Assembly: GCA_033764505.1 (NCBI GenBank)
Contig: JANRIW010000027.1
Coordinates: 7,831 to 71,830 of the forward strand
DNA length: 64,000 nucleotides
Direction: 5' to 3'
Source of the DNA: Gemmatimonadales bacterium
Lineage (GTDB): Bacteria; Gemmatimonadota; Gemmatimonadetes; Gemmatimonadales; GWC2-71-9
Shown here one piece after another: positions 1 through 51,641 of this stretch. Below the pieces are notes generated by a model. It was not told where the DNA came from. It searched no databases and worked only from the letters and a program-made list of their open reading frames with translations. The translations under genes and the position numbers were made by a program. Position 1 is the first letter of the stretch, and each line of letters starts with the position of its first letter.

Positions 1-2506
1 GGCGGCTCACCTGAGCGAGAAGCCCGCGGCGGTCGAATCGCGCCGGCCCGACTGTCCGCCAGCGCTGGCGCTGCTGGTCGCTCGCCTGCTGGAGAAGGAT
101 CCCGCCGATCGACTGGCGAGCGCCGCCGAGGTGGTGCAGGGGCTGAGCGGAGTCGGTACCTCGTCGTCGGAAGCCGACGCGCTCTCGCCCAGTGGCCGGA
201 TGATCGGGGCACTGGTGGGGTGGAGCGTGGCGACGCTGGTCGTCTGGATCGTGGCGAAAGCCGCGGTGGTCGGGATCGGGTTGCCGGAATGGACCGTGCG
301 CGGCGCCGTGGGGGTGATGCTCCTGGGGCTGCCGGTCCTGGTGGTCACCGGTTGGGTCAAGTGGATGGCACGCAAGGCGGCCACCGCAGCACCGACACTC
401 ACCCCCGGTGGGACGAACGTGCCGCGGCCGCTGTCGGGCACCATGACGAACATCGCGATCAAGGCCAATCGGCACCTCTCGTTCCGCAAGGCGCGCCGCG
501 CTGGTGTTGCCGCGATGGTGGTGTTCGTCGCACTGGTGGCGACCTTCATGATCACCCGCAACCTCGGCATCGGTCCGGCGGCGTCGCTGTTCGCCAGCGG
601 GTCGCTCAGCTCGCAGGACCGGCTCGTTCTGGCTGATTTTGCCGCCGATGACTCGAGCTACGTCCCGATCCTGGCCGAGGCGGTGCGATCGGCGATGTCG
701 CAGTCGAACGCGATCAAGCTGGTCACCCCGACCGACGTGGCGGTGACGTTGGTACAGATGCGTCGGCCCGCCACCACTGCGGTTACTGATCTCGTCGCTG
801 CCGAAGTAGCACAGCGAAGTGGGGCGAAGGCGATTCTCGGCGGCAGAATGGTGTCGGCCGGCACCGGTTTTCTGATCCAACTCGAGCTCAGGAATGCCAG
901 CGACGGGGCAATGCTGGCCTCGTTCCAAGGTACCGCCGATGCGCCGACCGACCTCCTCAAGACGGTCGATGAGCTGACCCGCAAGCTGCGCAGCAAGATC
1001 GGCGAATCGCTGAAGAGCGTGGCCAACACGGTACCGCTCGAACGAGCAACCACCACCTCGCTCGAGGCGCTGCGGCTCTACAGCGAGTCTGTTCGGGCCA
1101 ACGATATCGAGCAGGACTACGACAAGGGGATCCGCCTCAATCGCCAGGCATTGGCACTCGACTCGACGTTCGCCCTGGCCTGGCGCAAGCTGGGGATAAC
1201 CATCTCCAACGCCGGCGGATCATTGGCCGCTGTCGATTCGGCATTGGAGATGGCGCTGCGCTATGTCGACAAGTTGCCGCCGTTCGAGCAGGCATTGGTG
1301 CGCGCCTCCTACCACGACATCCACCAGACCGGCTGGGACCGGGCCGCCGCGTTCCGGGAATACCGCGAGGCGTACCGACTCGACTCAACCAACGCCGTGG
1401 TGGCCAACAATCTGTCCCTGAACTTTGACCAGGCCGGCCAGTACGACTCGGCTGTCCACTACAGCCGGGTCCTGGCTCGCGTGCAACCCGGATTGGTCTC
1501 GACGCTGAAGCTGGCGGTCGGCCTGCGTCAGGCAGGGCAGAGGGAAGCAGCCCGAGCTCTGGTCGATTCGGTTCGTGGCGCGTTGGGCGCCGATACAACC
1601 TCGGCGATCTTCGCCACCTTCGAGGCACTCAAATCGATCGCCGGCGGCGAGCTCCGTCGAGCGAGAGAGTTGAACAGTGGACTGCAATCAGCCGTCGGCC
1701 TCTCGGACCGAATAGCCGGACTCGGTGGCGGGGCCATCACGGCTTTTACCGCCGGCCAGCCGACGGAGGCGGCCCGGTTGCTGGCCCGGGGCGACTCGCT
1801 GCTCGGTACGCTCGACTACACCGCGGTGATCCCCGGTCTCGGGACAGCGACTGCGGAGATTCTCTACGGCGCCGATCCGGCCGGAGGGGTGGCGCGTCTC
1901 GACCGGGTGGTGTCGGGCGAGGCATGGCGGCGTGCCGCGTCGGCCGATCGGCCGTGGTTCGATGTCGCCACCCTCTATGCGAGGGGCGGTGCCCCCGACA
2001 AGGCGACCGGCATTCTGGCCGCCTTCCGTCGCGAGTGGCCCCAGGCGGCCGCCAGCGAGGCGATGGTCTCCCGCATTGCGATGGTCGAGGGCGAGATTGC
2101 CATGGCACGAGGCAACGCCGCCGCCGCGGTGGACAAGTTCCGGATCGCGACGACCCGCATTGACCAGAATCGAACCCTCTGCCCGGCATGTGCCCTCGAG
2201 GCGATGGCGCGCGCGTTCGACGCGGCGCGCCTGCCCGACTCGGCGCTGAGCTACCTCGAGCGCTACCTGGCGATTCCGGTCGAGGCCCGGATGTCGAACT
2301 ACACGAACTGGGAGACCGACGCCACTCGATTGGCGGCGGTCCGCAAGCGCCTCGGCGAGCTGTATGACGCGGCAGGCGAACGCACCAAGGCGATCGAACA
2401 ATACCAGGCGTTCGTGGACCAGTGGGCAGGCGCCGAGCCGGAGTTGCAACCGACGGTGGCCAGCGTGCGGAAGCGCATCGAGGAGCTGCGGCGGCAGGGA
2501 GGGTAG
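1..2506 (+). CDS. Ser/Thr protein kinase with TM segments and TolB-N/TPR-like C-terminal region (5'-truncated by window edge)
   Basis: Frame is open from base 2 and reads AAHLSEKP...LVARLLEKDPADRLASAAEV (kinase subdomain XI), then TM helices and TPR-like repeats (ALALDSTFALAW). Confidence 0.85.
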   Translation, partial: AAHLSEKPAAVESRRPDCPPALALLVARLLEKDPADRLASAAEVVQGLSGVGTSSSEADALSPSGRMIGALVGWSVATLVVWIVAKAAVVGIGLPEWTVRGAVGVMLLGLPVLVVTGWVKWMARKAATAAPTLTPGGTNVPRPLSGTMTNIAIKANRHLSFRKARRAGVAAMVVFVALVATFMITRNLGIGPAASLFASGSLSSQDRLVLADFAADDSSYVPILAEAVRSAMSQSNAIKLVTPTDVAVTLVQMRRPATTAVTDLVAAEVAQRSGAKAILGGRMVSAGTGFLIQLELRNASDGAMLASFQGTADAPTDLLKTVDELTRKLRSKIGESLKSVANTVPLERATTTSLEALRLYSESVRANDIEQDYDKGIRLNRQALALDSTFALAWRKLGITISNAGGSLAAVDSALEMALRYVDKLPPFEQALVRASYHDIHQTGWDRAAAFREYREAYRLDSTNAVVANNLSLNFDQAGQYDSAVHYSRVLARVQPGLVSTLKLAVGLRQAGQREAARALVDSVRGALGADTTSAIFATFEALKSIAGGELRRARELNSGLQSAVGLSDRIAGLGGGAITAFTAGQPTEAARLLARGDSLLGTLDYTAVIPGLGTATAEILYGADPAGGVARLDRVVSGEAWRRAASADRPWFDVATLYARGGAPDKATGILAAFRREWPQAAASEAMVSRIAMVEGEIAMARGNAAAAVDKFRIATTRIDQNRTLCPACALEAMARAFDAARLPDSALSYLERYLAIPVEARMSNYTNWETDATRLAAVRKRLGELYDAAGERTKAIEQYQAFVDQWAGAEPELQPTVASVRKRIEELRRQGG

Positions 2507-2508
2507 GG

Positions 2509-2577
2509 GCGCGGCCTGCGGCCGCGCATCCTGCCCTTTCACTTTTCACCTTTCACGACCCCCCCGTTCGCCCGTTC
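2509..2577. repeat. GC hairpin plus (CTTTCAC)x3 array; left inverted repeat of the DUF2779 gene
   Basis: GCGCGGCC-tgc-GGCCGCGC at 2509-2527, then ccCTTTCAC TTTTCAC CTTTCAC at 2534-2556. Confidence 0.85.
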
Positions 2578-2599
2578 TCCCCCACACTACCTTCCCCTC

Positions 2600-4453
2600 A
2601 TGAAGACCCTCTCCAAGTCCGACTTCAAGCTGGCCCGCGACTGCCCGGCCAAGCTCACCTGGCGAGAGCGCGGCTATCCCAACACCCTCGATGACAATCC
2701 CTACCTCGCCCTCCTGGCCGAGGGGGGATACATGGTCGAGCAGTTGGCGCGGCTCCTCTTTCCGGGCGGCGTGGAGCTGGAGTATGACCCGCGTCGCTCC
2801 CGGGACGCATGGGAGACGACTCTCGCCGCGATCAGCAGCGGCGACGGCACCTGGTTCGAGGCCACCCTGCTCGCGGGACGCCAGCTCGCCCGGGTGGACA
2901 TTCTCAAGCGACGCGGCAATCGCTTCGACCTGTATGAGGTCAAGTCGAAGTCGTTCGACGGCGATGATCTCGATGAAGGTCCCGGTGGTCCGTTCCGCCA
3001 GAAGCGGAAGCCGTACGCTATCCGCGTCACTTGGCGGCCGTACCTCGAAGACATCACCTACCAGGTACATGTGCTGCACCGCCTCTTTCCCGAGGCCGAG
3101 GTGCATGCCCACCTGATTGTGGTGGACAAGTCATCCACGGCGAGCGTCGAGGCGATGCCGCGGCTGTTCACCATCCGGCGCGGACGGAATCCGGGGGAGC
3201 CCGATCTCGATGTCCGCTTCACCGGCGATCCGGCGGCGATCGATCCCGGCGAACTGCTCGGCGTGATTGCAGTGGACGCCGAGGTGGACGAATTGTTCGA
3301 CGAAGTGCGCGCCTTTGCAGATGCCCAGGAGTCGCGATACACCGATTCGGCAATAGCCCATCAACCGGCGCCGCTCGGGCTGCACTGCGCCAAGTGCGAG
3401 TACCGGGTCGCCACCGACGAGCCGCTGAACGGCTTCCGCGAATGCTGGGGTTCGCTCGCTCCCGATGGTCCGTCGGTGCTCGATCTCTACATGTTCGGTC
3501 TCACCAAGCACGACGGCGAGAAGCTCGGCGACGTGATGATCGCCAACGGGCGCACTGGGCTCGACGAGGTTGATCCCGCCCGGCTGGTCAAGAAGGACGG
3601 CACTCCGACCTCCTACTCGACCCGGCAACTGATTCAGATCGAACACACTCGGCGCCGCGAGAGCTGGCTCGATCCCGCTCTGGCAACTGCGATTGCCAAC
3701 GTGAGCTACCCGCTCCACTTCATCGACTTCGAGACCAGTGCGCTGGCAGTTCCCTATCACCAGGGGATGCGACCCTATCAGTCGATCGGCTTCCAGTGGA
3801 GCTGTCACACCATCCGCGCGCCGGGCGCGGTGCCGGAACATCGCGAATGGCTCAATGTCGTCGATCTCTGGCCGGCCGTGGAGTTCATCGACTCGCTGCG
3901 CCGCGCAATCGGCGACGACGGCACGGTGCTGATCTGGTCCAAGTACGAGCGGACCATCCTGCGGCAGCAACGCGAGCAGCTCGAGGCGCGTGGCTTGGCG
4001 ACACCAGAGCTGATGCAATGGCTGGAACCGCTGGCCGACAAGGATTATCCCGACACCCGGCTCCTCGACCAGCACAAGCTCTGCGAGCGACACTACTTCC
4101 ACCCGGAGATGCATGGCAAGACCAGCATCAAATGGGTGCTCGACGCCATCTGGCAGAACGACCCCGAGGTCCGGCGGCAGTTCGCGGAGTGGATGGGCGG
4201 CGATGCCTATGACGTGGCAGCGGGGCTGGGCCCCTACGACGCGATGCCCAGAGTGGTGGTCGGCGACACGGTGCTCAACGTGGCCGACGGCACCGGGGCG
4301 ATGCGCGCCTACCAGGCGATGCTCTACGGTGATCCCATAGACCGGGACCGGCACGCCGAGCAGTGGGCCGAGCTGCTCCGGCGCTACTGCAAGCTGGACA
4401 CGCTGGCGATGGTGCTGATATGGGAGCATTGGCGGCGAGGGACGGCGCGGTGA
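2600..4453 (+). CDS. DUF2779-family protein: Cas4/PD-(D/E)xK-like nuclease fused to RNase H-like/DnaQ exonuclease domain
   Basis: LSKSDF...DCPAK, RVDIL, YEVKS, HCAKCEY...ECW; C-terminal YPLHFIDFET, RPYQSIGFQWSCH, YCKLDTLAM. Confidence 0.85.
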   Translation: MKTLSKSDFKLARDCPAKLTWRERGYPNTLDDNPYLALLAEGGYMVEQLARLLFPGGVELEYDPRRSRDAWETTLAAISSGDGTWFEATLLAGRQLARVDILKRRGNRFDLYEVKSKSFDGDDLDEGPGGPFRQKRKPYAIRVTWRPYLEDITYQVHVLHRLFPEAEVHAHLIVVDKSSTASVEAMPRLFTIRRGRNPGEPDLDVRFTGDPAAIDPGELLGVIAVDAEVDELFDEVRAFADAQESRYTDSAIAHQPAPLGLHCAKCEYRVATDEPLNGFRECWGSLAPDGPSVLDLYMFGLTKHDGEKLGDVMIANGRTGLDEVDPARLVKKDGTPTSYSTRQLIQIEHTRRRESWLDPALATAIANVSYPLHFIDFETSALAVPYHQGMRPYQSIGFQWSCHTIRAPGAVPEHREWLNVVDLWPAVEFIDSLRRAIGDDGTVLIWSKYERTILRQQREQLEARGLATPELMQWLEPLADKDYPDTRLLDQHKLCERHYFHPEMHGKTSIKWVLDAIWQNDPEVRRQFAEWMGGDAYDVAAGLGPYDAMPRVVVGDTVLNVADGTGAMRAYQAMLYGDPIDRDRHAEQWAELLRRYCKLDTLAMVLIWEHWRRGTAR

Positions 4454-4527
4454 AAGGTGAAAGGTGAAAGGGGGGCGCGGCAGGGCCGCGCGGGTGAACG
4501 GTGAACGGTGAACGGTGAAACGGGGGG
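4450..4527. repeat. (GTGAAAG)x3, GC hairpin, (GTGAACG)x3 and GTGAAAC; right inverted repeat of the DUF2779 gene
   Basis: Read directly; first unit contains the TGA stop; GCGCGGC-agg-GCCGCGC at 4475-4491. Confidence 0.9.
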
Positions 4528-4659
4528 CGGGGAGCTGCGGCCTTGGGTGCCAGGCTGCGTCAGGTGGTACCGTTCCGATTGTACCTCCCTTGCCATTGTT
4601 GGCGGGATCCCGGTTGTGGGGGAGCTGTCGACAAACCCATCTGATAGGTTATGCTTCAA

Positions 4660-4926
4660 GTGCCAGTGGTCTTCCGGCAAGGCAATGTGGTGGTGCGGAT
4701 CTACCCGCCACCTCGTGAACACCATCCGCCCCATGTGCACGTCTGCTTTGTCGGGATTGGCGAGGTGGTGATTGAGCTTGGTACGGCTGTTGCCGGCCCG
4801 CGCATTCATCGGGACTACGGCGTGCCTGCTCGCATGGTCCTGGCGGCGTACCACATCGTCGCGGATCACCAAGAGCTGTTCCAGCATGAATGGGAGAAGT
4901 TGCATGGCACTCCACCGACTGACTGA
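4660..4926 (+). CDS. DUF4160 family putative toxin
   Basis: IYPPPREHHPPHVHV motif and C-terminal WEKLHG; GTG at 4660 (MPVVFR) preferred, ATG at 4651 possible. Confidence 0.8.
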   Translation: MPVVFRQGNVVVRIYPPPREHHPPHVHVCFVGIGEVVIELGTAVAGPRIHRDYGVPARMVLAAYHIVADHQELFQHEWEKLHGTPPTD

Positions 4927-5332
4927 CGCCGAGATACTGGCACAGCTTCCGGCCGCTCGCCAACGCGCGAGCGATGCCCGTCGTCGCGAGCCACATGGTC
5001 GAGCGGTACGCTACGCGCGCTCTCGGAGGCAATTGGTGATCACTCTGATCAACGATGTCGAATTGCGGATTCCGATCGCCCGACTGCCCGTGCTGAAGGG
5101 AGCGACTGAGGCACAGCTCGCTCGTGTCGAATTGAGCCCGGCAGGCGTTGGCGTAGCGTGGGATGAGCTGAACGTGGACTTCACCGTGGCCCAGTTGGCG
5201 ACGATCGCCGTGGGTCCAGCGACCGTCGTCCGGGCAGCAACATCGCTCGCTGGTGCCACGCGCTCACCCGCCAAGGCCGCCGCCGCGCGCCGCAATGGCT
5301 TGAAGGGCGGACGGCCGAGGACTACCCCATGA
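4904..5332 (+). CDS. DUF2442 family putative antitoxin
   Basis: VELSPAGVGVAWDELNVDF and RSPAKAAAARRNGLKGGRPR tail; overlaps DUF4160 gene. Confidence 0.8.
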   Translation: MALHRLTDAEILAQLPAARQRASDARRREPHGRAVRYARSRRQLVITLINDVELRIPIARLPVLKGATEAQLARVELSPAGVGVAWDELNVDFTVAQLATIAVGPATVVRAATSLAGATRSPAKAAAARRNGLKGGRPRTTP

Positions 5333-6540
5333 CCACTCGCCTCGCGTGCTTCGCCTCACTGCTCGTTGCCTGTGCCCCGGTGGCCGACGAGGCCGCCGCA
5401 CCCGACCGCCACATATATGTATGGGCCGGGGCGATGGACAGCAGCGTGAACGACGCCCTCATCGTCATCGATGTCGATACCTCCTCCGCCACATACGGTC
5501 AGGTAGTCGGGCAGGTGGATGTCGGCGCGAGTGGCACGATGCCGCACCACATCCAGCGCAGAGTCAGTTCCGACGGACGCCTGATCGCCAACGGATGGAT
5601 GTCGGGGAAGAATTGGATCTTCGACGTCAGCAACCCGCGAGCGCCCACGATCCTGGCCGACCTTGCCACGGCGGGCGATTCGATCGGGTGGGCACACGAC
5701 TTCGCCCCGATGCCGAACGGCCACACGCTGGTCGCCTTCAACGCCAGTGCGGGAGAGTATGCTGGCGCGGGCGGACTCGCGGAGGTGGATGCCGACGGCA
5801 CCGTGGTGCAATGGGCAATGGCCCGAAGCGACGCAGCCGGCGACACTGCGATGACTCCCTACACCGTGGCGATGGTACCGGGTCGGGATCGCGCTCTGGT
5901 CGGGCTCGGCGAGATGGGAATGGGCAAGGACTATCCCTATCACTACACCAGTGCGCTGCAGCTCTGGTCAACGGCCCCCCTCGCACCACTGGAGCTGATT
6001 CCGCTGCCAGCCAATGGCGCCGACAGTGGCCATGTCGCCGCATCGACCGTGGCCGCCACTGCCAACGGAGAGTTGTTCGCAAACACCTTCTACTGCGGAC
6101 TCTATCATGTGACCGGGCTGATCGGCGAAGCGCCGAGTGCCACGCGGGTGTTTTCCTTTCCGGGTGGCACCGATGACGACACGCTGTGCGGAGTGGCGAC
6201 CACGGTCGGCAATTACTGGATCCAGGCGGTGGCGGCACTGCCGGGGATCATGGTGGTGGATTTGAGCGATCCGACGGCGCCACGCGAGGCGGCGCGCTTG
6301 GTACTCGATGGCAGTCGCTTTCCGAATCCGCATTGGGTGTCCGTCAACAGCGACGGCACCCGGCTCGCCATCACCGGAAACATGGGGCTGTGGCTGGCGA
6401 TGGCCCGACTCGACCCAGAAACCGGCACGCTCACTCTAGATCAAAGCTTCAAGGGGGCGGAGGCGAGCAGCGCCGGGATGATGGTTCGCAACCGCGATGG
6501 GAAGATGATGTATCCGCACGGGGTGGCCTGGGGGCCGTGA
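5329..6540 (+). CDS. Selenium-binding protein (SBP56)-like beta-propeller lipoprotein
   Basis: Lipobox LLVAC; YVWAG...DALIVIDVD...YGQVV...MPHH; C-terminal PHG. Confidence 0.65.
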   Translation: MTTRLACFASLLVACAPVADEAAAPDRHIYVWAGAMDSSVNDALIVIDVDTSSATYGQVVGQVDVGASGTMPHHIQRRVSSDGRLIANGWMSGKNWIFDVSNPRAPTILADLATAGDSIGWAHDFAPMPNGHTLVAFNASAGEYAGAGGLAEVDADGTVVQWAMARSDAAGDTAMTPYTVAMVPGRDRALVGLGEMGMGKDYPYHYTSALQLWSTAPLAPLELIPLPANGADSGHVAASTVAATANGELFANTFYCGLYHVTGLIGEAPSATRVFSFPGGTDDDTLCGVATTVGNYWIQAVAALPGIMVVDLSDPTAPREAARLVLDGSRFPNPHWVSVNSDGTRLAITGNMGLWLAMARLDPETGTLTLDQSFKGAEASSAGMMVRNRDGKMMYPHGVAWGP

Positions 6541-6601
6541 CACTAATCCAGGGGCGGAAGAGCGGGAACCGTTTCCCGCCCCCAGGACTACTATTCTGGT
6601 G

Positions 6602-7015
6602 ATGACTCACCCCATCCTGCTCTACGACGGCACCTGCGGTTTCTGCGCGGCGAGCGTGCAGTTGGTGCTGCGCCACGACCGGACCGGGACGCTCCGCTTC
6701 GCATCGCTGCAGGGTCCCACCGGGCAGGCCGCCATTCTGAGACACCCGGAGCTGGCTGGCGCCGATTCGGTGGTCTGGGTGGAGCCGGCCACGGCCGACC
6801 ACCCGGAGCGGGTCTATCTCCGTTCGGCTGCGGCGCTCAGGACTTCCCGCTATCTCGGCGGTATTTGGCATCTGATGCGGATCGGCTGGCTGGTGCCAAG
6901 GCCGCTGCGGGATGCCATCTACGATTTTGTCGCCCGTCATCGCCACCGCATCCCGATCGGCGCCGATCGCTGCGACCTGCCAGCGCCAGAGGCCCGGGAG
7001 CGGTTCCTGGACTGA
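6602..7015 (+). CDS. DCC1-like thiol-disulfide oxidoreductase (DUF393)
   Basis: YDGTCGFC, FASLQ, RSAA, PRPLRDAIYDFVARHR. Confidence 0.9.
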   Translation: MTHPILLYDGTCGFCAASVQLVLRHDRTGTLRFASLQGPTGQAAILRHPELAGADSVVWVEPATADHPERVYLRSAAALRTSRYLGGIWHLMRIGWLVPRPLRDAIYDFVARHRHRIPIGADRCDLPAPEARERFLD

Positions 7016-7033
7016 TGGGTGAGGGGTGAAGGG

Positions 7034-7111
7034 CCTGCCCCGCCCCGCGAAGCGGCGGCGGGGTGAACGGGGCCGCCGCTTCCCCGCCGCCGCTTCGCGG
7101 GGCGGGGCAGG
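7034..7111. repeat. Perfect 30-bp inverted repeat (REP-doublet-like) flanked by GTGARRG-type heptamers
   Basis: 7034-7063 CCTGCCCCGCCCCGCGAAGCGGCGGCGGGG is the exact reverse complement of 7082-7111. Confidence 0.9.
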
Positions 7112-7167
7112 TGCGGCGGCGGGGTGAAAGGTGAAACGGGTCGTAGTTGTGGCGTGCTTCCCTTTCT

Positions 7168-7186
7168 TTAATTGATCGTTTAATCT
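7168..7186 (+). promoter_or_regulatory. Putative TetR operator overlapping a -10 box
   Basis: AT-rich imperfect palindrome TTAATTGATCGTTTAA; TAATCT lies 6 nt before the ATG. Confidence 0.55.
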
Positions 7187-7192
7187 ACTACG

Positions 7193-7822
7193 ATGAATGA
7201 CACCTCTACCCGCGACGACATTCTCGCAGCCGCTACCGATCTCTTTGCCCGACAAGGAGTTGAGGCCACCAGCATCAAGGCCATCGGAGCCGCCGCCAAG
7301 GTCAACCCGGCACTGATCTACTACTACTTCGCCGACAAGGCCACCCTCTACGACGCGGTGCTCGACCGAATGGTCCGGGCGTTGCCCGGCCGACTGGCCG
7401 ACGCGCTGGAAAAGGTCGAGTCGCCCTCCGAAGGGCTGGCCTTGGTGGTGCGGCTTCAGGCGGAGGCGTTCCTGGCGGAGCCGTTGTTGCCGAGGTTGCT
7501 GGCGCGGGAATTGGCCGACCACGAGGCGAGTCATGCCACCCAGCTGCTGCGGGAGCACGCCGCACGGTTGATCGGTGCCATGATAAGGCTGATCACAGCC
7601 GGCCAGGCGAGCGGCGAGATCCGGAGCGACCTCGACCCCACCATGTTGGCCATCTCGATTCTGTCGCAGGTCAACTGGTTCTGCATCGCCGCGCCGGCAA
7701 TTCAAACCATCCTGTCGCGTCCCGGCGTCAGTCATGCTCCGGAGGCGGTGCGTGCCTTTGCCGACCATGTGGTCGCCTTCTCGATAAACGGATTCACGCC
7801 GACGCGGGGGGGGGATAAATGA
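7193..7822 (+). CDS. TetR/AcrR family regulator
   Basis: N-terminal HTH ILAAATDLFARQG...LIYYYFADKATL. Confidence 0.95.
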   Translation: MNDTSTRDDILAAATDLFARQGVEATSIKAIGAAAKVNPALIYYYFADKATLYDAVLDRMVRALPGRLADALEKVESPSEGLALVVRLQAEAFLAEPLLPRLLARELADHEASHATQLLREHAARLIGAMIRLITAGQASGEIRSDLDPTMLAISILSQVNWFCIAAPAIQTILSRPGVSHAPEAVRAFADHVVAFSINGFTPTRGGDK

Positions 7823-8802
7823 GGCAATGGATGCGCACATTCGGCGCGACCTTGACGGTGCTGGCAATGATCGGCTGCAACAACACCGATGACAACGTAC
7901 TGCGTGGCACGGTCGAGGTACGGGAGGTCGATGTAGCGCCCTTCTCAGTCGGTCGAGTGACCTCCGTGACAGTCGACGAGGGCGCCACCGTGCACCGCGG
8001 TGACACGTTGGCCGTGATCACCGCACCGAGGCTGGCGGCGAATCTCGATCTGGCAGAGGCCCGCCTGGCAACGGCGCGGGCGGTGCTCCGGGACCTCGAG
8101 GCAGGGAGCGATCCAGAGCAGATCGAGATGGCCATGGCCGACCTCGTGGCGTTGGAGGCGGAAGCAGCCCGCCTCACTCGGGATCGCGACCGGGTCGATG
8201 GCTTGCTCTCCTCGGGCGCAGTATCGGTGCAGGCGCGCGATGCCGCTCAGACCGCGGCAGCGGCGGCTCAGGCGCGGGTGGAGTCCGGCAGGGCGCGATT
8301 GGCATTGATGCGTGCCGGCACCCGGGCCGATCAATTGGCGGCGGCGCGCGCGGAGGTGAGGCAGGGGGAAGCGGCGTTGGCCTCAGAGCGGGCCAGCAAT
8401 GCCGACTATGTCCTGCTCGCCCCGATCGACGGGGTGGTGCTCACCCGTCTGCTGGAGCCGGGGGATCTGGTCTCGCCGGCCGGCGCCGTGGTGCGTCTCG
8501 GAGACGTGACCGCGCCGTGGGTGCGGGTGTTCGTTCCCGCGCGAATGCTGCCGGGGATCACCGTCGGAGATACGGCAGCCATCATCCCGCCCGGAGTGAA
8601 GGAAGGCGAGGGCGATCAGATCATCGGGCGGATCGTGGCGATCAATCCACGCGCCGAATTCGTGACTCGCGCGGCGCTCACCGAGGAGGAGCGAGCGGAC
8701 CTGCTGTTCGGGGTCAAGGTCGAGATTGCCGATACCACCCAGCGGCTCAAGCCGGGGATGCCGGCGACGGTGCGGCTTTTCCCACGCGTCGCGACGCCAT
8801 GA
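7819..8802 (+). CDS. HlyD-family periplasmic adaptor
   Basis: Lipobox, VDEGATVHRGD, APIDGVV, LKPGMPA. Confidence 0.9.
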   Translation: MRQWMRTFGATLTVLAMIGCNNTDDNVLRGTVEVREVDVAPFSVGRVTSVTVDEGATVHRGDTLAVITAPRLAANLDLAEARLATARAVLRDLEAGSDPEQIEMAMADLVALEAEAARLTRDRDRVDGLLSSGAVSVQARDAAQTAAAAAQARVESGRARLALMRAGTRADQLAAARAEVRQGEAALASERASNADYVLLAPIDGVVLTRLLEPGDLVSPAGAVVRLGDVTAPWVRVFVPARMLPGITVGDTAAIIPPGVKEGEGDQIIGRIVAINPRAEFVTRAALTEEERADLLFGVKVEIADTTQRLKPGMPATVRLFPRVATP

Positions 8803-9545
8803 CGGCAGCGATATCGGCTCGCGCTTTGCGAAAGACGTTCGGCGACCTGGTGGCAGTCGAGGGTCTCGACCTCGACGTCGAGCGCGGGGAAGTCTTCGGC
8901 CTGCTGGGTCCCAATGGCAGCGGCAAGACCACCACGATCCGGATGTTCTGCGGGCTGATGCCGCCGACCTCGGGGACAGCGCTGGTGGCGGGAGTCGATG
9001 CGGTGGCCGACCCCGAAGGAGTTCGCCGACGGATAGGCTACATGTCGCAACGATTCGGGTTGTACGATGACCTGACTGTGCGCGAAAACTTCACCTTCTA
9101 CGCCGGACTCTACGGGCTCAACGGTGCCGCCCGGAAGAGACGTGAAGCGGAGTTGTTCGCGAGTCTGGGGCTTGATGCGCGCCGCAGTCAGCTCACAGGG
9201 ACACTCTCTGGTGGCTGGAAGCAGAAACTCGCCCTGGCCTGCGCCATGGCGCACCGGCCTGATCTGATCTTCCTCGATGAACCGACCGCCGGTGTCGATC
9301 CGGCAGCGCGCCGACAGTTCTGGACGATGATCCGCGGCTACGCGGCCGAGGGGGTGACGATCCTGGTCACCACGCACTACATGGACGAGGCGGCTCGGTG
9401 TGATCGGCTCGCCTTCCTCTCCCGCGGGCATCTGATCGGACTGGGCACCCCCGAGGAAGTGACGGCCCAGTTCGGACAGAAAACAGTGGAGGATGTCTTC
9501 GTCGCCCTGCAGGCCCGCGACGAGGCGGAGGGAGCACCGGAGTGA
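8799..9545 (+). CDS. ABC transporter ATP-binding protein
   Basis: GPNGSGKTT, LSGG, LDEPTAGVD, TTHYMDEA; ATGA overlap start. Confidence 0.95.
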   Translation: MTAAISARALRKTFGDLVAVEGLDLDVERGEVFGLLGPNGSGKTTTIRMFCGLMPPTSGTALVAGVDAVADPEGVRRRIGYMSQRFGLYDDLTVRENFTFYAGLYGLNGAARKRREAELFASLGLDARRSQLTGTLSGGWKQKLALACAMAHRPDLIFLDEPTAGVDPAARRQFWTMIRGYAAEGVTILVTTHYMDEAARCDRLAFLSRGHLIGLGTPEEVTAQFGQKTVEDVFVALQARDEAEGAPE

Positions 9546-10675
9546 GCCGGGCTTGGCGGTGGCTGCATGGCTTGAGCGTCTGGCCGATGCTGGTCAAGGA
9601 ATTCATCCAGTTGCGGCGGGACCGTCCCACCGTCGCCATGATGGTGGGGATCCCGGCGATCCAGTTGATGCTGTTCGGTTTCGCGATCCGCACCGAGGTG
9701 CGGAATCTCCCCACCGCGGTCTACGACGAGGCCCGCACCTCCGATTCGCGCGCCCTGGTGCAGACCATCCTCAATACCGGCAATTTCCGCTTTCATGCCG
9801 ATGCCACCTCGCGCGATGAGATCACCCGGTGGATCGAGGCAGGAACGGTGCGCGCGGCGATCGTCATCCCGCCCGAATTCACGCGCGACCTGGCGCAGCG
9901 TCGCACCGCGCGGGTGCAGGTGATCGTCGACGCCTCCGATCCGCTCGCCTCGCAGGCGGCGATGAGCGGGGCCTCTCTCGGCGGCCAGCAGCGCGCGCTG
10001 GAGATCGCAACCGCGCGGGGCGGCAGCTCATTGCCGCTCGAGGTGAGCGTTCGGCCGCTCTACAATCCGACCCTGCAGAGCTCGACCTACATCGTGCCGG
10101 GGATCATCGGGGTGCTGCTGTCGATGACTCTGGTGATCGTGATGGGGATGTCGGTGGTGCGCGAGCGGGAGCGCGGCACCCTCGAGCAACTGGTGGTGAC
10201 CCCGATTTCCAGGATCGGGCTGATGCTCGGCAAAGTGCTGCCGTTCGTGCTGGTGGGATACGTGCAGATGACGGTGATCCTGCTGCTGGGCCGAGTGGTC
10301 TTCCACGTGCCGCTCCGCGGCTCGTTGTTGCTGCTGTACGTGGCCGCGGCCGGATTCATCGGAGCCAATCTGGCCATCGGGTTGTGGCTCTCGACCATGG
10401 TGCGGACCCAGGCCCAGGCGATGCAGATGGGATTCCTCTTCCTGCTGCCCAACCTGCTGCTCTCCGGCTTCATGTTCCCGCGGGAAGCGATGCCCGAGGG
10501 GGCTCAATGGCTCGGCGCCGCGCTGCCGCTCACCTACTTCCTGGAGGTCCTGCGCGGCATCCTCCTCAAGGGAGTGGGCTTGGCGGCCCTCTGGCCGCAG
10601 ATCACCATTCTGGCGGTGTTCGCGGTGCTGTTCGTGGGATTGGCGGTGCGCCGGTTCCACAAGACGGTGGAGTAG
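9542..10675 (+). CDS. ABC-2 type permease (YbhR/S-like)
   Basis: KEFIQLRRD, VRERERGTLEQL, LLSGFMFP. Confidence 0.93.
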   Translation: MSRAWRWLHGLSVWPMLVKEFIQLRRDRPTVAMMVGIPAIQLMLFGFAIRTEVRNLPTAVYDEARTSDSRALVQTILNTGNFRFHADATSRDEITRWIEAGTVRAAIVIPPEFTRDLAQRRTARVQVIVDASDPLASQAAMSGASLGGQQRALEIATARGGSSLPLEVSVRPLYNPTLQSSTYIVPGIIGVLLSMTLVIVMGMSVVRERERGTLEQLVVTPISRIGLMLGKVLPFVLVGYVQMTVILLLGRVVFHVPLRGSLLLLYVAAAGFIGANLAIGLWLSTMVRTQAQAMQMGFLFLLPNLLLSGFMFPREAMPEGAQWLGAALPLTYFLEVLRGILLKGVGLAALWPQITILAVFAVLFVGLAVRRFHKTVE

Positions 10676-10719
10676 GGTGGGCGACTGGTTGCATCTCTCC
10701 GTCAGTCGCATGACATTTC

Positions 10720-12120
10720 GTGACCAAACCGAAAACCAGATGGCACCGCTCTGCAGTCCCGAGGTCAGGACCGCAGCCACTCGCAGGCTCCGAGGGACCG
10801 ACGATCGCACTCGCAACACTCGCCCGCCTCGCGATCCGGATCTACTACCGGATCCGTTATGGCGGGGAGCCCATCCCCGCCACCGGCCCGGCGCTGCTGG
10901 TGGCCAATCACCCCAACTCGCTGCTCGATCCGGTGGTGGTGATGGCGGCGGCGCGCCGCCAGGTGCGCTTTCTCGCCAAGGCGCCACTCTTCGCCGACCC
11001 GAAAACCGCCTGGTTCGTGAAGCTTGGTGGGGCGATTCCGGTGCACCGCGCCAGCGACGATCCTGCCAAGATGGCCGACAACGCCGCAATGTTCCGCGCC
11101 GTGCATGAGGCACTGGGTCAGGGCGACGCGGTGGGCCTCTTCCCGGAGGGGATCTCCCATGCCGCACCAGCGATGGCGCCGCTCCGCACCGGTGCGGCGC
11201 GGATCGCGCTGGGTGCCGCGCCACTTGTGGGGGGGGGATTTCCGGTGGTGCCGGTGGGACTCACTTTCCGGCAACGCGATGTGTTCCGGAGCGAGGCGCG
11301 GGTGGTGATCGGCGCGCCGATCGCCTGGGACGATCTGGCCGATCGCGGAGTGGACAACCCGGAGGCGGTGCGGGAGTTGACCGCTCGCATCGCCGGGGCG
11401 TTGGCAGCGATTACCCTCAACCTCGAGCGGTGGGAAGACGAACCGCTGGTGACCTGTGCCGTCCGCGTGTGGGAGGCTGAGCATCAGCAACCACCGGCCA
11501 CCGCGGAGCGTGCCCGCCGGATCACGATCACGACCCGGCTGCTCGCCGCCATTCGGGCGAGCGGTGATCCCGAGGGAGCAGCGGTGGTGCGCGCGGTGGG
11601 CCAACATCACCGCCGACTGATGCGGCTCGGGCTCAGACCGGTGGACCTGACCGTGACGCTGGGATGGTGGCATGGTGCCCGCTGGGCAGCGCGCCGATTG
11701 CCGGTCGTGCTGCCGCTCTGGGCGGCGCTCGGCGTGACGGGGTGGCTGTTGTTCGTGATTCCGTATCGACTGACCGCGTGGATCGTGAACCGCTTCACTC
11801 TCGAGACCGACACCCGCTCGACCTGGCAGTTCCTGATCGGGAGCGGGGTGTACCTGGCGTGGGTGGTCGGCTGGGGAGTTGTGGCCGGGCTTGTCTGGGA
11901 CCTCTGGGCAGCGTTCGCGGTGCTGATCGCCGTGCCGGTGGTCGGCATGGCCGGGCTGCTGGTGCGCGAGCGGTGGCGTGGTGCGTGGAACGACCTCAGC
12001 CGATTCGTCCTGATGCGTTCCCGAGATAGATTGCTGACCACTCTGCGGCAGGAGCAGCACGACCTCGCCGAGCGACTCGATGCCCTTTATCACCGCGCTT
12101 CCGCGGGAGAGACCGCATGA
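10720..12120 (+). CDS. Phospholipid/glycerol acyltransferase with C-terminal TM helices
   Basis: ANHPNSLLD (HX4D), FPEGISH. Confidence 0.9.
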   Translation: MTKPKTRWHRSAVPRSGPQPLAGSEGPTIALATLARLAIRIYYRIRYGGEPIPATGPALLVANHPNSLLDPVVVMAAARRQVRFLAKAPLFADPKTAWFVKLGGAIPVHRASDDPAKMADNAAMFRAVHEALGQGDAVGLFPEGISHAAPAMAPLRTGAARIALGAAPLVGGGFPVVPVGLTFRQRDVFRSEARVVIGAPIAWDDLADRGVDNPEAVRELTARIAGALAAITLNLERWEDEPLVTCAVRVWEAEHQQPPATAERARRITITTRLLAAIRASGDPEGAAVVRAVGQHHRRLMRLGLRPVDLTVTLGWWHGARWAARRLPVVLPLWAALGVTGWLLFVIPYRLTAWIVNRFTLETDTRSTWQFLIGSGVYLAWVVGWGVVAGLVWDLWAAFAVLIAVPVVGMAGLLVRERWRGAWNDLSRFVLMRSRDRLLTTLRQEQHDLAERLDALYHRASAGETA

Positions 12121-13424
12121 CGGCGATCGCCTCCGACCCACCGGCACCGTTTCAGCGGGATGTTCCCCGGGTGATCTGGTCGTGGGCGCTGTACGACTGG
12201 GCCAACAGCGCCTTCACGACGCTGGTGGTGACCTTCATCTACGCCACCTACTTCACCAGGGCGATGGCACCCGACGAGGTGACGGGAACCGCCTGGTGGT
12301 CGCGTGGCGTGGCGATCAGCGCGATCCTGATCGCGATGCTGTCGCCGCTGATGGGGGCGATCGCCGACCGGGGCGGGATGCGGAAGCGTTTTCTGGCGCT
12401 CTCGACGGCGGTGTGCGTGGCGGCAACGGCGGCACTCGCCTTCATTGCTCCTGGGGGGGGGACGGCGGCGTTGGTCGCGATCGTGCTGTTCGTGATCGCC
12501 AACATCGCCTTCGAAATGAGCGGACTGTTCAACAGCGCCTTTTTGCCGAGCATCGCCTCTCCCGGTCGGATCGGACGGATCTCCGGCTATGGCTGGGGAC
12601 TGGGATACGTGGGTGGTCTGGTCTGCATGGTGATCGCGCTGGTGGGGTTCGTGCAGCCGGAGGTGCCATGGTTCGGGATGAGCACCGAGGCAGGATGGAA
12701 TGTGCGCGCCACCAACCTGCTGGTGGCGGTATGGTATGCTGTGTTCGCACTGCCGATGTTTTTCAACGTTCCCGAGCGCAAGGTGGTGGGCGGCAAGGTG
12801 GATGTTGCAGGGGCTTTCCGTTCGCTGGCCCAGACGGTGCGCGACGTCCGGCGCTACGGCGAGGTCGTCAAGTTTCTGGCGGCGCGACTGATCTACAACG
12901 ACGGCCTGGTGACGATCTTCGCCTTCGGAGGGATCTACGCCGCCGGTACCTTCGGCTTCGCGCTCAGCGAGGTGATCATTTTCGGAATCGTGCTCAATGT
13001 CGCCTCGGGAATCGGGGCGGTGCTGTTCGGGTTCGTCGATGACCGGCTCGGCGGGCGCAACACGGTGCTGATCACCCTGGCCGGATTGATCCTGGCAGCC
13101 CTCATCGCGGTGCTCGCTCCCACCGCCACCTGGTTCTGGGTAGCCGGGATCCTGGTGGGGATCTTCGTGGGCCCCAACCAGAGCGCCTCCCGCTCGCTGA
13201 TGGGGCGGCTGGTCCCCGAGAAGCACGAGACGGAGTTCTTCGGCTTCTTCGCCTTCAGCGGCAAGGCCACGGCGTTTCTCGGGCCGCTGCTGCTCGGAGT
13301 GGTGACGACCATGTTCGACTCGCAGCGCGCCGGAGTGGCGACGGTGGTCGGATTCTTCCTGGTCGGCGGATTGGTGTTGCTGACCGTGGACGAGAAGAAG
13401 GGGATGGCGGGGAAGGAGATGTGA
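12117..13424 (+). CDS. MFS transporter (UMF1/ATG22-like)
   Basis: WALYDWANSAF, GRISGYGWGLGY, QSASRSL, EFFGF. Confidence 0.9.
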   Translation: MTAIASDPPAPFQRDVPRVIWSWALYDWANSAFTTLVVTFIYATYFTRAMAPDEVTGTAWWSRGVAISAILIAMLSPLMGAIADRGGMRKRFLALSTAVCVAATAALAFIAPGGGTAALVAIVLFVIANIAFEMSGLFNSAFLPSIASPGRIGRISGYGWGLGYVGGLVCMVIALVGFVQPEVPWFGMSTEAGWNVRATNLLVAVWYAVFALPMFFNVPERKVVGGKVDVAGAFRSLAQTVRDVRRYGEVVKFLAARLIYNDGLVTIFAFGGIYAAGTFGFALSEVIIFGIVLNVASGIGAVLFGFVDDRLGGRNTVLITLAGLILAALIAVLAPTATWFWVAGILVGIFVGPNQSASRSLMGRLVPEKHETEFFGFFAFSGKATAFLGPLLLGVVTTMFDSQRAGVATVVGFFLVGGLVLLTVDEKKGMAGKEM

Positions 13425-13538
13425 AAGGTGAAAGGTGAAAGGTGAAAGGTGAAAGGTGAAAGGTGAAAGGTGAAAGGGAAGCCCGCCTGACAACCCGTTT
13501 TACCTTTCACGTTTTACGTTTTACCTCTTACGTTTCCC
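13421..13538. repeat. Heptamer inverted-arm element: (GTGAAAG)x8, 20-nt core, degenerate CTTTCAC/GTTTTAC arm
   Basis: Eight perfect units at 13421-13476; core GGAAG-CCCGCCT-GACAACCC; right arm 13497-13538. Confidence 0.95.
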
Positions 13539-19707: not shown

Positions 19708-19792
19708 CAGCAGACCTCGGAGGAGGAGATGGGGAGTGGCGGGAAATCTATATCCGATCCGGTGACGGTGTCATCTGCACGCCTCTCACCTT

Positions 19793-21811
19793 TCACTCGT
19801 CGTCGCCACCCTGACCCCGCCCCTCAACCAGCACCCGCACCGCCTCGCCGCCCACCGGCCGGAGCAGCCCGAAGCGCTTGCCGACCGTGCGGGCCAGAGT
19901 CGAGTCGGCTCCGGCACGCCAATTCCCATCTGCGACCGTGCCATCGGCGCGTCGTTGCAGTGCCGCCTCGCCAAGGGCGCCGAGCTCGGCGAGCGCAGTA
20001 GCTACGGCAGCTCCTTCCAACGCCACCGGGACTCGGTCCGTCATGCTGCGGAGTGCCGGGGCGAAGCGTTGCATCTTCTCGAAGTGCCCTCGCAGGGCCG
20101 CCACCGCGTTCGCGTCACCCGATACGGCCTGAGCGGCAAGTTGCTGCATCCGCCAGCCGAGCCACGGATCGGGACGAGCAGCATCGACCAGCCGGGTCAT
20201 CGGCGTCAACTGGTTGGTGCCGTAACCGCCGAACCCCTTGGGACGAGCGTAGTCGAGGAAGGACGCGAGCAGCTCCAGATCGGTGCCGCCGGCGTGCCTC
20301 CGCAGCATCCTGGCGGTGTGATCCTCGTGCCGGAGCCCTAGCTCGGCCAACTGTCGCGACACCACCTCGAGGCGGCGATACATGTCGGGGACATCGCGCA
20401 CCTTGGCGGGCGACCAGAATCGTTCTGCCACTGCACCCAGCCGGGGGAAGATGCGCGACTCGATGGTCTCGGAGGTGACATACTCGCTCCACATCGCCGC
20501 TTCGCCACCGAGCACGAGCCGTTGCTGGTCCTCGGCAAGGTCATGTCCTGCAGGGAGCACGTCGGCGAGGTACATCTCGCCGGCGGTCTTGATGTGATCG
20601 AGATACCACGGTGCCGAGAGGATCGTCTGGCGACCCTGCTTTGCCGCGGCGAGCAGCCCTTCCGGACCGCGCCAAGACTGGATCACCGCGCCGCGGGGAA
20701 GGTCGGGTTGCAGGATCTCGTCCCACCCCACCGGCTGCCGTTCATGGCGGGCCAGAATGGCAAAGAGTCGCTCGTTGAAGCGGGTCTGCAGTCCGTGCGT
20801 GTCGGTGACGTTGTTGGCCCGCATCCACGCTTGGATCGCCTCACTCTCCCGCCAGTGGGTCGGGTCGACTTCATCCCCGCCGATGTGCCAGCTCCGGTCC
20901 GGAAAGAGCGGCACCATCTCGGCAATGAATGTCTCGAGGAAGCGATAGGTCGATTCACGGGTCGGGTCCATCGTCCCCTTGAAGACCCCCCAGCCCCGCT
21001 CGATCCGGTACGGCCCGGGAGCACTGCCGAGCTCCGGATAGCCGACCAACCACGCGGTGGTGTGGCCGGGTACGTCGAACTCCGGCACCACCCGGATGCC
21101 GCGCTCGGCGGCGTAGGCCACCACCTTCCGGATCTCGTCCTGGGTGTAGAAGAGACCGTCGGAGCCGAGCTGGTGGAGCAGCGGGAAGGCGCGGCTCTCG
21201 ACCCTGAACCCCTGATCCTCGCTCAGATGCCAGTGCAATACGTTGAGCTTGAGTGCGGCCATCCCGTCGATGATCCGCTCGATCACGCTCACCGGTTCGA
21301 AGTGCCGGGCAACATCCACCAGCAGACCGCGCCAGGGAAAGCGCGGGGCGTCGTTGATGGTGGCTGCCTGGAGAAAATGTCCCTCGCGGTCGGCACCGTG
21401 CAGTTGGAGCAACGTTTCCAGGCCGCGAATGGCACCCACCACGGTGGCGGCATGGAGTCGCGCCTGTGTGGCGGAGATTTCGAGTTGGTAGCTCTCGTCC
21501 TCGCCGAGGTCGGGGACGGTGAACCCGGCGCCATCGACCTCGATCACCAACCGGGCTGCCTCTGGACTTGCCGCGGTGCGCGGGAGATGGCGGGCGACGC
21601 GTCGCTCCAACCGTTCGAGGGTCCGCTCCACGGCGCCTTCCAGGCGGGCGTCGCGGTGGCCGATCCAGGCCAGGGTGAACGAGGAATCGAGTCGCAAGCG
21701 CGCGTCAGTGAAGAGTGCGGATTGCGGGGTCGGCAACAACGTGTTGCTCGGCGAGCTCTGGGCGGCGAGCGATCCGGTGCCGATCATGATGGCAGTGATG
21801 AGTTTGCGCAT
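19793..21811 (-). CDS. Beta-N-acetylhexosaminidase (GH20)
   Basis: DAPRFPWRGLLVDVARHF, HWHLSEDQG, HIGGDE, GGEAAMWSE; start MRKLITA. Confidence 0.95.
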   Translation of the reverse strand: MRKLITAIMIGTGSLAAQSSPSNTLLPTPQSALFTDARLRLDSSFTLAWIGHRDARLEGAVERTLERLERRVARHLPRTAASPEAARLVIEVDGAGFTVPDLGEDESYQLEISATQARLHAATVVGAIRGLETLLQLHGADREGHFLQAATINDAPRFPWRGLLVDVARHFEPVSVIERIIDGMAALKLNVLHWHLSEDQGFRVESRAFPLLHQLGSDGLFYTQDEIRKVVAYAAERGIRVVPEFDVPGHTTAWLVGYPELGSAPGPYRIERGWGVFKGTMDPTRESTYRFLETFIAEMVPLFPDRSWHIGGDEVDPTHWRESEAIQAWMRANNVTDTHGLQTRFNERLFAILARHERQPVGWDEILQPDLPRGAVIQSWRGPEGLLAAAKQGRQTILSAPWYLDHIKTAGEMYLADVLPAGHDLAEDQQRLVLGGEAAMWSEYVTSETIESRIFPRLGAVAERFWSPAKVRDVPDMYRRLEVVSRQLAELGLRHEDHTARMLRRHAGGTDLELLASFLDYARPKGFGGYGTNQLTPMTRLVDAARPDPWLGWRMQQLAAQAVSGDANAVAALRGHFEKMQRFAPALRSMTDRVPVALEGAAVATALAELGALGEAALQRRADGTVADGNWRAGADSTLARTVGKRFGLLRPVGGEAVRVLVEGRGQGGDDE

Positions 21812-22708: not shown

Positions 22709-22817
22709 AAGGGTGGACGGGATGTGGTCGAATCGTGAAACGTGAAAGGTGAAACGGAAGGTGGGGCGACAACCCCTTTCACCTTTCACCTTTCACCTTT
22801 CACCGTTCACCGTTAAC
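22691..22817. repeat. Heptamer inverted-arm element with conserved 20-nt core
   Basis: GTGANAG units at 22691-22711 and GTGAAAS units at 22735-22755; core GGAAG-GTGGGGC-GACAACCC; (CTTTCAC)x4 CGTTCAC CGTTAAC. Confidence 0.93.
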
Positions 22818-51450: not shown

Positions 51451-51641
51451 GGTGAGGGGTGAACGATGAGGGGTGAGGGGTGAGGGGTGAAACGTAAAAG
51501 GTGAAACGGAGGACGGTGAACTGACCACACTACCGTTTCACCTTTCACCTTTCACCTTTCACCTTTCACCACTCGCCATCCACCACTCGCCATTCACCAC
51601 TCGCCATCCACCACTCGCCATCCACCGCTTCCCGTTCACCC
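51451..51641. repeat. Compound heptamer inverted-arm element with a 14-mer higher-order array
   Basis: GGTGAGG/GTGAAAC arm, core, GTTTCAC (CTTTCAC)x4, then (CACCACTCGCCATY)x4 at 51567-51622. Confidence 0.92.

Follow-up and report, generated by a model that had tools for sequence, protein, structure and literature searches.

Does a nuclease gene that lies between inverted repeats belong to those repeats? The question is raised by a locus in a 64,000-nt stretch of DNA from a Gemmatimonadales bacterium (NCBI GenBank assembly GCA_033764505.1, contig JANRIW010000027.1, positions 7,831 to 71,830 of the forward strand; hereafter the window), in which a single gene encoding a DUF2779 protein is bracketed, at 2509-4491, by imperfect inverted repeats made of GC-rich hairpins and tandem heptamers. 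The original prediction had proposed that this gene could carry the enzyme of the repeat system or be its cargo, in the way that RAYT (REP-associated tyrosine transposase) genes are flanked by their repetitive extragenic palindromic (REP) sequences; a stand-alone defence cassette next to a toxin-antitoxin pair was offered as the alternative. If true, a link to the repeats would be notable, for a REP-like repeat family would then be tied to a second class of enzyme, different from Y1. The proposed link is contradicted from three sides, each of them an outcome that the original prediction had itself named as refuting, as repeat-bearing relatives lack the gene, orthologues lack the flanking repeats, and the repeat density of the genome accounts for the bracket. 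With the gene-repeat link removed by this evidence, what remains is therefore an ordinary member of a described, uncharacterised nuclease family, and the DUF2779 gene is not a candidate enzyme of the heptamer-array system. We consider it highly probable that the gene encodes a stand-alone two-headed nuclease and that the flanking inverted repeats are incidental, being neither its ends nor its substrates.

One line of evidence is the distribution of gene and repeats among relatives. In a sample of 40 relatives, a full-length orthologue was found in 10 (G001, G004, G007, G016, G018, G021, G022, G023, G025 and G031) and weaker DUF2779-family matches in 14 more, giving 24 relatives with any match. 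Three tandem copies of the heptamer GTGAACG (GTGAACGx3) are matched 168 times in the genome containing the window (G000, a draft of 3.62 Mb in 39 contigs, with 68.5% GC and 94% complete), and matches recur in seven relatives (G005 46, G006 1, G008 28, G009 23, G012 41, G014 47 and G020 20), with none in the other 33. All 10 relatives with a full-length orthologue are without GTGAACGx3 (9 of 9 when the unpublished G023 is set aside), as are all 24 with any match to the DUF2779 protein. Conversely, the seven repeat-bearing relatives, three of which are 94-98% complete, gave no match to the DUF2779 protein and none to the Pfam profile PF11074, a search that recovers the gene in G000. Those without the gene include G012, the relative richest in the variant unit GTGAAAG, which is dominant there (529 triple-heptamer matches with up to one mismatch, compared with 41 for GTGAACG). 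The co-occurrence implied by the original prediction was thus absent in both directions (0 of 7 repeat-bearing relatives with the gene, 0 of 24 family-bearing relatives with the repeat), and gene and repeats exclude each other across the 40 relatives.

The orthologues also lack the bracket itself. The 42 related loci come mostly from Gemmatimonadales metagenome-assembled genomes (MAGs) at 42-54% identity, with one locus (L002) at 75%, and include Sphingobacteriaceae, Spirochaetota and Omnitrophota at 30-37%. One of the 42 loci (L010) has a period-7 array close to the gene (within 250 nt); its unit, TGAGACC, is different, and it stands on one side only. None of the 31 orthologue loci with both flanks available exceeded an inverted flank score of 12 (the score is described below), so that the inverted arrays expected around orthologues were not found. 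At L002, the gene stands beside a DCC1-like homologue and near p403, and its neighbourhood is regarded as related to that in the window because of these two genes; its flanks are free of heptamers.

The sequence around the gene is arranged as follows.
2504-2506: stop codon (TAG) of the upstream kinase/TPR gene
2500-2537, plus strand: extended GC-rich hairpin with the core GCGCGGCC-TGC-GGCCGCGC at 2509-2527, from pattern match and RNA fold
2536-2556, minus strand: heptamer array (CTTTCAC)x3 with one mismatch, a minus-orientation arm of the GTGAA[A/C]G family
2600-4453, plus strand: DUF2779 gene of 617 aa, an open reading frame (ORF) with Pfam PF11074 and the stop codon TGA at 4451-4453
4450-4470, plus strand: heptamer array (GTGAAAG)x3, overlapping the DUF2779 stop codon
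4475-4491, plus strand: hairpin GCGCGGC-AGG-GCCGCGC, from pattern match
4494-4521, plus strand: second plus array, (GTGAACG)x3 then GTGAAAC; no heptamer unit is commoner in the genome than GTGAACG
4651-4926, plus strand: DUF4160 ORF (Pfam E 6e-7)
4772-5332 as listed, the true start being probably later, plus strand: DUF2442 ORF (Pfam E 2.5e-12), overlapping the DUF4160 ORF

The arms and hairpins are present in the sequence as originally claimed. Positions 2534-2556 (CCCTTTCACTTTTCACCTTTCAC) and the reverse complement of 4450-4472 (CCCTTTCACCTTTCACCTTTCAC) are identical at 22 of 23 nucleotides, and a flank-versus-flank scan recovered this match independently (score 20, from 22 matches and 1 mismatch at -2). 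The pattern GCGCGGC-loop-GCCGCGC has just two matches in the window, at 2509-2527 and 4475-4491, against 0.11 expected from shuffles. The plus array at 4494-4521 is an addition to the features originally listed. The core of the left hairpin begins 3 nt past the kinase/TPR stop, the array (CTTTCAC)x3 follows seven bases further on, and the extended stem at 2500-2537 folds with a free energy of -33.2 kcal/mol (z -4.5), which none of 200 shuffles equalled. No terminator was called in a simple consensus terminator scan of 2300-4800. The position of the hairpin directly after the kinase/TPR stop, together with a U-rich tail on its 3' side, nevertheless makes it terminator-like, and the left module probably also acts as the terminator of the upstream kinase gene. 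On the right side, the TGA stop codon of the DUF2779 gene comes from the array (GTGAAAG)x3 itself. Rfam (gathering threshold) and tRNA scans of window positions 1-9000 and 1-12000 returned nothing, and therefore no known RNA family or tRNA integration site explains the locus.

Both flanks belong to a repeat family found throughout the genome, defined by tandem GTGAA[A/C]G units adjoining GCGCGGC(C)-loop-(G)GCCGCGC, of which the left flank is a standard 'hairpin then (-)array' module and the right flank a standard '(+)array then hairpin' module. Within the window, the heptamer pair (14-mer) is matched 32 times against 0.15 expected, and heptamers occupy seven sites (2536, 4450-4521, 7124-7137, 13421-13517, 19783-19796, 22691-22810 and 51487-51569). 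Genome-wide, tandem arrays of at least three copies number 346 for period 7, compared with 18, 20, 14 and 3 for periods 5, 6, 8 and 9, respectively. By number of arrays, the unit families are led by GTGAACG (87), GAGAAGC (79) and CCCTCAC (29), followed by several more, including CTACGAC-type units and GTGACCA. The GTGAAAG variant found at the DUF2779 gene is rare, with 5 arrays in the genome, and is restricted to this contig region plus a single site on contig C34. The 117 GTGAA[A/C]G clusters are oriented '+' in 41 cases, '-' in 36, '+-' in 35, '++-' in 4 and '++' in 1, and '-+' does not occur. A composite element is evident, the left half of which consists of (GTGAACG)n, often a GCGCGGCC-loop-GGCCGCGC hairpin, inner GTGAGGG or GTGACCA arrays and a spacer, followed by a right half that mirrors the left and terminates in (CGTTCAC)n. 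GCGCGGC hairpins (n = 38) lie within 45 nt of GTGAA[A/C]G arrays in 24 cases, forming 14 '(+)array then hairpin' and 11 'hairpin then (-)array' modules, one hairpin belonging to a module of each form. Where the GTGAACG unit is in plus orientation, TGA appears in every reading frame inside 21 nt. The system was present in 8 of 41 sampled genomes of one genus, with the dominant unit varying by genome. A search of G000 with the Y1 transposase profile PF01797 gave no match, so classical RAYT does not explain the repeats in this genome either.

These data show how an ordinary gene can come to be bracketed. The flanking arms are most probably two half-copies of the heptamer-array/hairpin intergenic system that fills this genome and those of a few close relatives. 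The canonical element (GTGAACG)n...(CGTTCAC)n is itself an inverted pair, which gives rise to the apparent terminal inverted repeat, since a gene lying between two elements or half-elements has the minus arm of one to its left and the plus arm of the other to its right. Insertion of the gene into one canonical element was also considered and rejected, as it predicts the order '+ gene -', the order observed is '- gene +', and '-+' is never found within a cluster.

Repeat density was then set against the frequency of bracketed genes. A period-7 array was found at the left end of 293 of 2616 genes called by a simple ORF picker and at the right end of 284 of them, and 67 genes have arrays at both ends, where 32 would be expected if the two ends were independent. 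The figure of 67 is conservative, because the relaxed period-7 detector missed the imperfect left array of the DUF2779 gene itself. For each gene so called, the two 180-nt flanks were compared and their best ungapped match was taken as a flank score, which reached at least 20 in inverted orientation for 20 of 2568 genes, among which the DUF2779 gene ranked 19-20, and at least 20 in direct orientation for 33 of 2568. The other 19 genes with such inverted flanks have unrelated functions and encode two kinases, a GIY-YIG protein, two photolyase-family proteins, two 23S-IVS proteins, a radical SAM enzyme, a glutamate dehydrogenase, a Y-family polymerase, a histidine kinase, a beta-lactamase-fold protein, an M28 peptidase, a cyclophilin/HEAT protein and others. 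The two photolyase-family genes have a complete canonical element on either side and show the '- gene +' order seen here. The suggestion that the bracket goes beyond chance is therefore not borne out in a genome with 346 arrays and 20 genes with equal or better inverted flanks, and two members of the repeat family flanking one gene are within what repeat density gives.

Several points weigh against an incidental bracket. The DUF2779 gene is the only one in the genome with a hairpin-plus-array module on both sides, and approximately 0.05 genes with such modules on both sides would be expected under independence (11 + 14 modules, about 2900 intergenic regions), which makes a configuration of precisely this kind uncommon. 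The rare GTGAAAG sub-variant is present in both arms, which may share a recent local origin, because this sub-variant is confined to the present region and one C34 site. The point is softened by local clustering, as 7 variant sites among the 57 genes called in the window would give about 0.8 adjacent pairs. The genome-wide counts rest on a crude ORF picker based on GC content at third codon positions (GC3) in place of a proper gene finder (2895 ORFs, 86% coverage, replacing a stricter first version with 2095 ORFs and 70% coverage). Most of the relatives are incomplete MAGs and, being kin, are not independent of each other. The bare hairpin pattern occurs on both sides of 3 of the 2616 genes; the two other genes concerned were considered as like cases and discarded, since their hairpins are chance GC palindromes in the absence of heptamers.

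The protein itself carries the domains of a known nuclease family. Pfam assigns PF11074 (DUF2779) alone, at residues 373-509 (score 84.4 bits, cut-off 23.3, E 1e-23, with all 126 profile positions covered), and a search with this profile found the gene to be single-copy in G000. NCBIfam gave a single sub-threshold match (UU173_fam, E 0.38). Residues 1 to about 290 (approximately 2600-3469) form a Cas4/RecB-like PD-(D/E)xK nuclease domain with four conserved Cys residues, and residues from about 368 to 617 (approximately 3701-4450) a DnaQ-like DEDDy 3'-5' exonuclease domain. All motifs named in the original prediction (VDIL, EVKS, DCP, CAKC, EC, DFE and YCKLD) are present and fall on invariant columns of a 32-sequence alignment, in which C15, D100, E113, K115, Q155, C263, C266, C282, D376, E378, E450, Y596 and D600 are invariant. 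D100, E113 and K115 constitute a D...(D/E)xK motif of the catalytic type and are predicted to act in catalysis. In the C-terminal domain, the Exo I DxE motif corresponds to D376/E378 and the Exo III Yx3D motif to Y596/D600, with the invariant E450 and the nearly invariant D490 both being candidates for the Exo II acid. The Cys residues follow a pattern of one N-terminal (C15) and three C-terminal (C263, C266 and C282), with the last spacing being CX2CX15C, and by this pattern the four residues probably bind an iron-sulfur cluster.

Structural modelling agrees with this assignment. An AlphaFold2 model of the full-length protein has a mean predicted local distance difference test score (pLDDT) of 91.3 and a predicted template modelling score (pTM) of 0.89, and residues 1-365 alone gave a pLDDT of 91.4. 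A VIA search of 48,161 chains with the N-terminal domain returned two equal top matches, both Cas4: 8d3l_I (Z 12.4, root-mean-square deviation (rmsd) 4.9, 187 residues aligned) and 7mi4_A (Z 12.4, rmsd 4.5, 193 residues aligned). These were followed by 3l0a (Z 10.6) and the Cas4 structure 4ic1 (Z 10.4), and then by RecE, Exo5, MGME1, AdnA, AddB and Dna2, with 16 chains in total at Z of at least 8. Exo5, AddB and Dna2 are iron-sulfur enzymes. Residues 368-617 aligned with the exonuclease domains of family-B polymerases (Z 13-14.1, rmsd 2.5-3.0, 175-180 residues aligned), this VIA comparison being a second look at candidates from Foldseek. The full-length model had no Foldseek match in the PDB at E 0.001 or better, which is why the domain-wise alignment was needed, and sequence searches against the PDB, with the single protein or the 32-sequence profile, gave rows at chance level and no Cas4. 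The models thus support a restriction-endonuclease-like fold of the Cas4/RecB branch, with an RNase H-like exonuclease fold at the C-terminus. Fold matches and residue conservation agree with each other, and they support the proposed reading of a Cas4/RecB-like nuclease, with a putative four-Cys staple, joined to a DEDDy-like exonuclease. Such an enzyme may trim or degrade DNA ends using two heads of opposite polarity, the Cas4-like head acting 5'-3' or endonucleolytically and the DEDDy head 3'-5'.

This two-domain architecture has already been published for the family, which is known yet uncharacterised. Majorek et al. 2014 place PF11074 in the 3'-5' exonuclease clade and note that it co-occurs with a PD-(D/E)XK domain (PMC3985635), and a 2026 mSphere paper describes the family, through MMSYN1_0389, as a fusion of Cas4-like and DEDD(y) domains (PMC13621843). 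The present protein shares with the PF11074 family the two-domain plan of Cas4-like PD-(D/E)xK and DEDD(y), the D..ExK triad, and the DEDD acids with their Tyr. It differs from MMSYN1_0389 of JCVI-syn3.0, which is reported to keep only two Cys residues (PMC13621843), in that it and its Gemmatimonadales orthologues keep four. Because these four putative iron-sulfur Cys residues are kept and the models are confident, the Gemmatimonadales orthologues are reasonable subjects for the first DUF2779 biochemistry. Among known proteins, the best N-terminal structural matches are Cas4 of type I-C, Cas4-Cas1 of G. sulfurreducens and SSO0001 (Z 12.4, 12.4 and 10.4), and the D/ExK motif and the pattern of one N-terminal and three C-terminal Cys residues are conserved, although the usual last-Cys spacing of Cas4 is shorter than CX2CX15C. 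Unlike Cas4, the nuclease domain is here fused to a DEDDy exonuclease, and the gene is adjoined by the kinase/TPR gene upstream and DUF4160/DUF2442 downstream instead of cas genes. No cas genes were found adjoining it or near 23 orthologue loci; the wider genome was not scanned for them.

Two explanations would tie the gene to its flanks. If the nuclease were to make, spread or maintain the heptamer/hairpin repeats in the manner of a RAYT, sitting between its cognate repeats, the likeness to REP/RAYT loci would be explained, namely a nuclease-type gene between inverted, hairpin-containing short repeats in this one genome, the sole gene with hairpin-plus-array modules on both sides, and a protein predicted to be a nuclease from its model. 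This is hardly credible given that 7 of 7 repeat-bearing relatives (including G012 with its 529 GTGAAAGx3 matches) lack the DUF2779 gene, 10 of 10 orthologue-bearing relatives lack such repeats, and orthologues elsewhere have no flanking repeats. The arms also point 'inside-out' with respect to the canonical element, and the protein is not a Y1/HUH transposase, Pfam finding only DUF2779. As another possibility, the approximately 2-kb segment 2509-4491 could be a non-autonomous transposable unit with terminal inverted repeats of about 45 bp and the nuclease gene as cargo, in keeping with the imperfect inverted ends of that length, the varying content of this chromosomal slot between sister genomes (see below) and the presence of DUF2779 homologues on 30 of 72,556 plasmid records. 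We regard this as very improbable, scarcely better placed than the RAYT-like explanation. The gene is single-copy, no transposase lies between the arms, and the supposed ends do not stand out among the hundreds of copies that make up their repeat family. Inverted ends are found at 0 of 31 orthologue loci and are missing from the 75% identical orthologue in its related neighbourhood. Nor is there a convincing target-site duplication, with just GGG outside both ends; phage records contained no DUF2779 match, and the composition of the gene is ordinary (GC 0.652, GC3 0.828; genome GC3 mean 0.862, sd 0.054). An incidental bracket around a stand-alone nuclease is thus the preferred reading.

A further explanation, namely that the DUF2779 nuclease, perhaps with DUF4160/DUF2442, is an anti-phage or anti-plasmid module to which the repeats are irrelevant, competes only with a role in repair or recycling and not with the incidental bracket. 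It draws on the chromosomal slot of the gene. The interval from the kinase gene to p403 spans 2.8 kb in G000 compared with 8-9 kb in G009 and G014, the kinase and p403-TetR-HlyD genes being syntenic, and the DUF4160/DUF2442 'TA (toxin-antitoxin) pair' lies within the same variable slot, outside the repeat bracket. In G009 and G014 the slot (L072, G009:C8:163000-177000, 3562-10486; L073, G014:C7:875500-890500, 3650-11382) contains genes for a WYL-domain regulator, a protein of 1163-1237 aa with RNase_H_2 (PF13482) and SF1 helicase domains, and a protein of 776-781 aa for which no Pfam or PADLOC match was found; a DUF2442 homologue is also present within the G014 slot. No empty site was found, the slot in both genomes being occupied by these other genes. 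The nuclease-helicase is of the COG2251/TM0106 type, RecB-like nuclease plus RNase_H_2 plus SF1 helicase, a sister architecture of PD-(D/E)XK and RNase H-like exonuclease according to the 2014 paper, which groups this family with DUF2779 as PD-(D/E)XK-plus-exonuclease fusions (PMC3985635). It occupies the same slot as the DUF2779 protein and differs in its helicase module and in being twice as long, and pairwise similarity between the two is not significant (best E 1.6). The insert is a candidate WYL-regulated, defence-like cassette, and the slot as a whole gives a modest hint of a swap-prone accessory islet that is possibly defence-related. The patchy distribution of the gene among the 40 relatives, PIN genes near two orthologues, and the placement of the family under 'immunity connections' in the mSphere paper (PMC13621843) also fit a defence role.

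Other evidence is less favourable to defence. For the nuclease and the two small ORFs alike, PADLOC-DB 2.0 (2023 library) returned no family at E up to 1, a negative result that leaves room for a newer or undescribed defence system because of the date of the library. The PADLOC match of the sister-genome cassette (model MkoA) is limited to the helicase part. At 23 orthologue loci, most of the 91 neighbouring ORFs serve metabolism or housekeeping and no partner gene is conserved, and the plasmid neighbourhoods of two distant homologues revealed no consistent functional context. A housekeeping role is fitted better by MMSYN1_0389, which the mSphere paper reports as quasi-essential in JCVI-syn3.0 (PMC13621843), and by a DUF2779-family transposon mutant listed in an M. 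bovis mutant table. We therefore consider an anti-phage or anti-plasmid module rather unlikely. With regard to the cellular role, DNA repair or recycling is tentatively put ahead, at somewhat short of an even chance; degradation of foreign DNA is a less likely possibility, and other roles account for the rest. It is also conceivable, though improbable, that the heptamer/hairpin elements border a swap-prone kinase-p403 slot exchanging two-headed nuclease cassettes, with DUF2779 and DUF4160/DUF2442 here and the WYL regulator, RecB-like/RNase H-like helicase and 776-781-aa protein in the sisters. DUF2779 would then act on its own, as a single gene, as a defence nuclease of a kind not yet described, attacking incoming linear DNA from both strands and destroying it, and the repeats would serve as recombination substrates for replacement. 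On the kinase side of the slot, matches to the kinase/TPR orthologue fall in two or three separate open frames in both sister genomes (L063/L072, G009:C8:173583-175923; L066/L073, G014:C7:887054-889344), which may reflect a frameshifted or split gene or else errors of assembly.

The repeat system and the variable slot are more interesting by-products of this analysis than the nuclease gene. The heptamer-array system is real and abundant and merits an analysis of its own; only some members of one genus have it, and no Y1 enzyme is evident from the PF01797 search of G000. A full-text literature search found no paper on heptanucleotide repeats in Gemmatimonadetes. The nearest likeness is to the short tandemly repeated repetitive (STRR) heptamer sequences of heterocystous cyanobacteria, reportedly described by Mazel et al. 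in 1990, in that both consist of intergenic tandem heptanucleotide arrays with several unit families per genome. What sets the arrays of G000 apart is their high-GC Gemmatimonadales host and their nesting, in inverted pairs, around GC hairpins and heptamers of other families.

Three minor observations concern repeats of this kind. At L010, from another Gemmatimonadales MAG, a TGAGACC x6.4 array lies just upstream of the DUF2779 orthologue at 3686, and thus heptamer arrays with other units occur elsewhere in the order. Some heptamer elements of G000 contain a further repeat of about 100-150 bp with the inverted ends TGTCATCCTGAGCG...CGCTCAGGATGACA (for example at C3:26765-26972, C11:55526-55685 and C18:132037-132225), and a related copy, CTGTCATCCCGAGCG...GCTCGGGATGACAG, is present just downstream of the 75% identical orthologue (L002:7885-8000); it looks like a miniature inverted-repeat transposable element (MITE)-like element common to Gemmatimonadales. 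Finally, a 26-nt palindromic unit, ACCGCGGCCTGACGGCCGCGGCTGAA, occurs at many intergenic sites of G000 and brackets at least three unrelated genes, as observed in the flanks of C35 7434-11195, C19 128461-129678 and C3 55454-58003, and constitutes a second, REP-like hairpin family within this genome.

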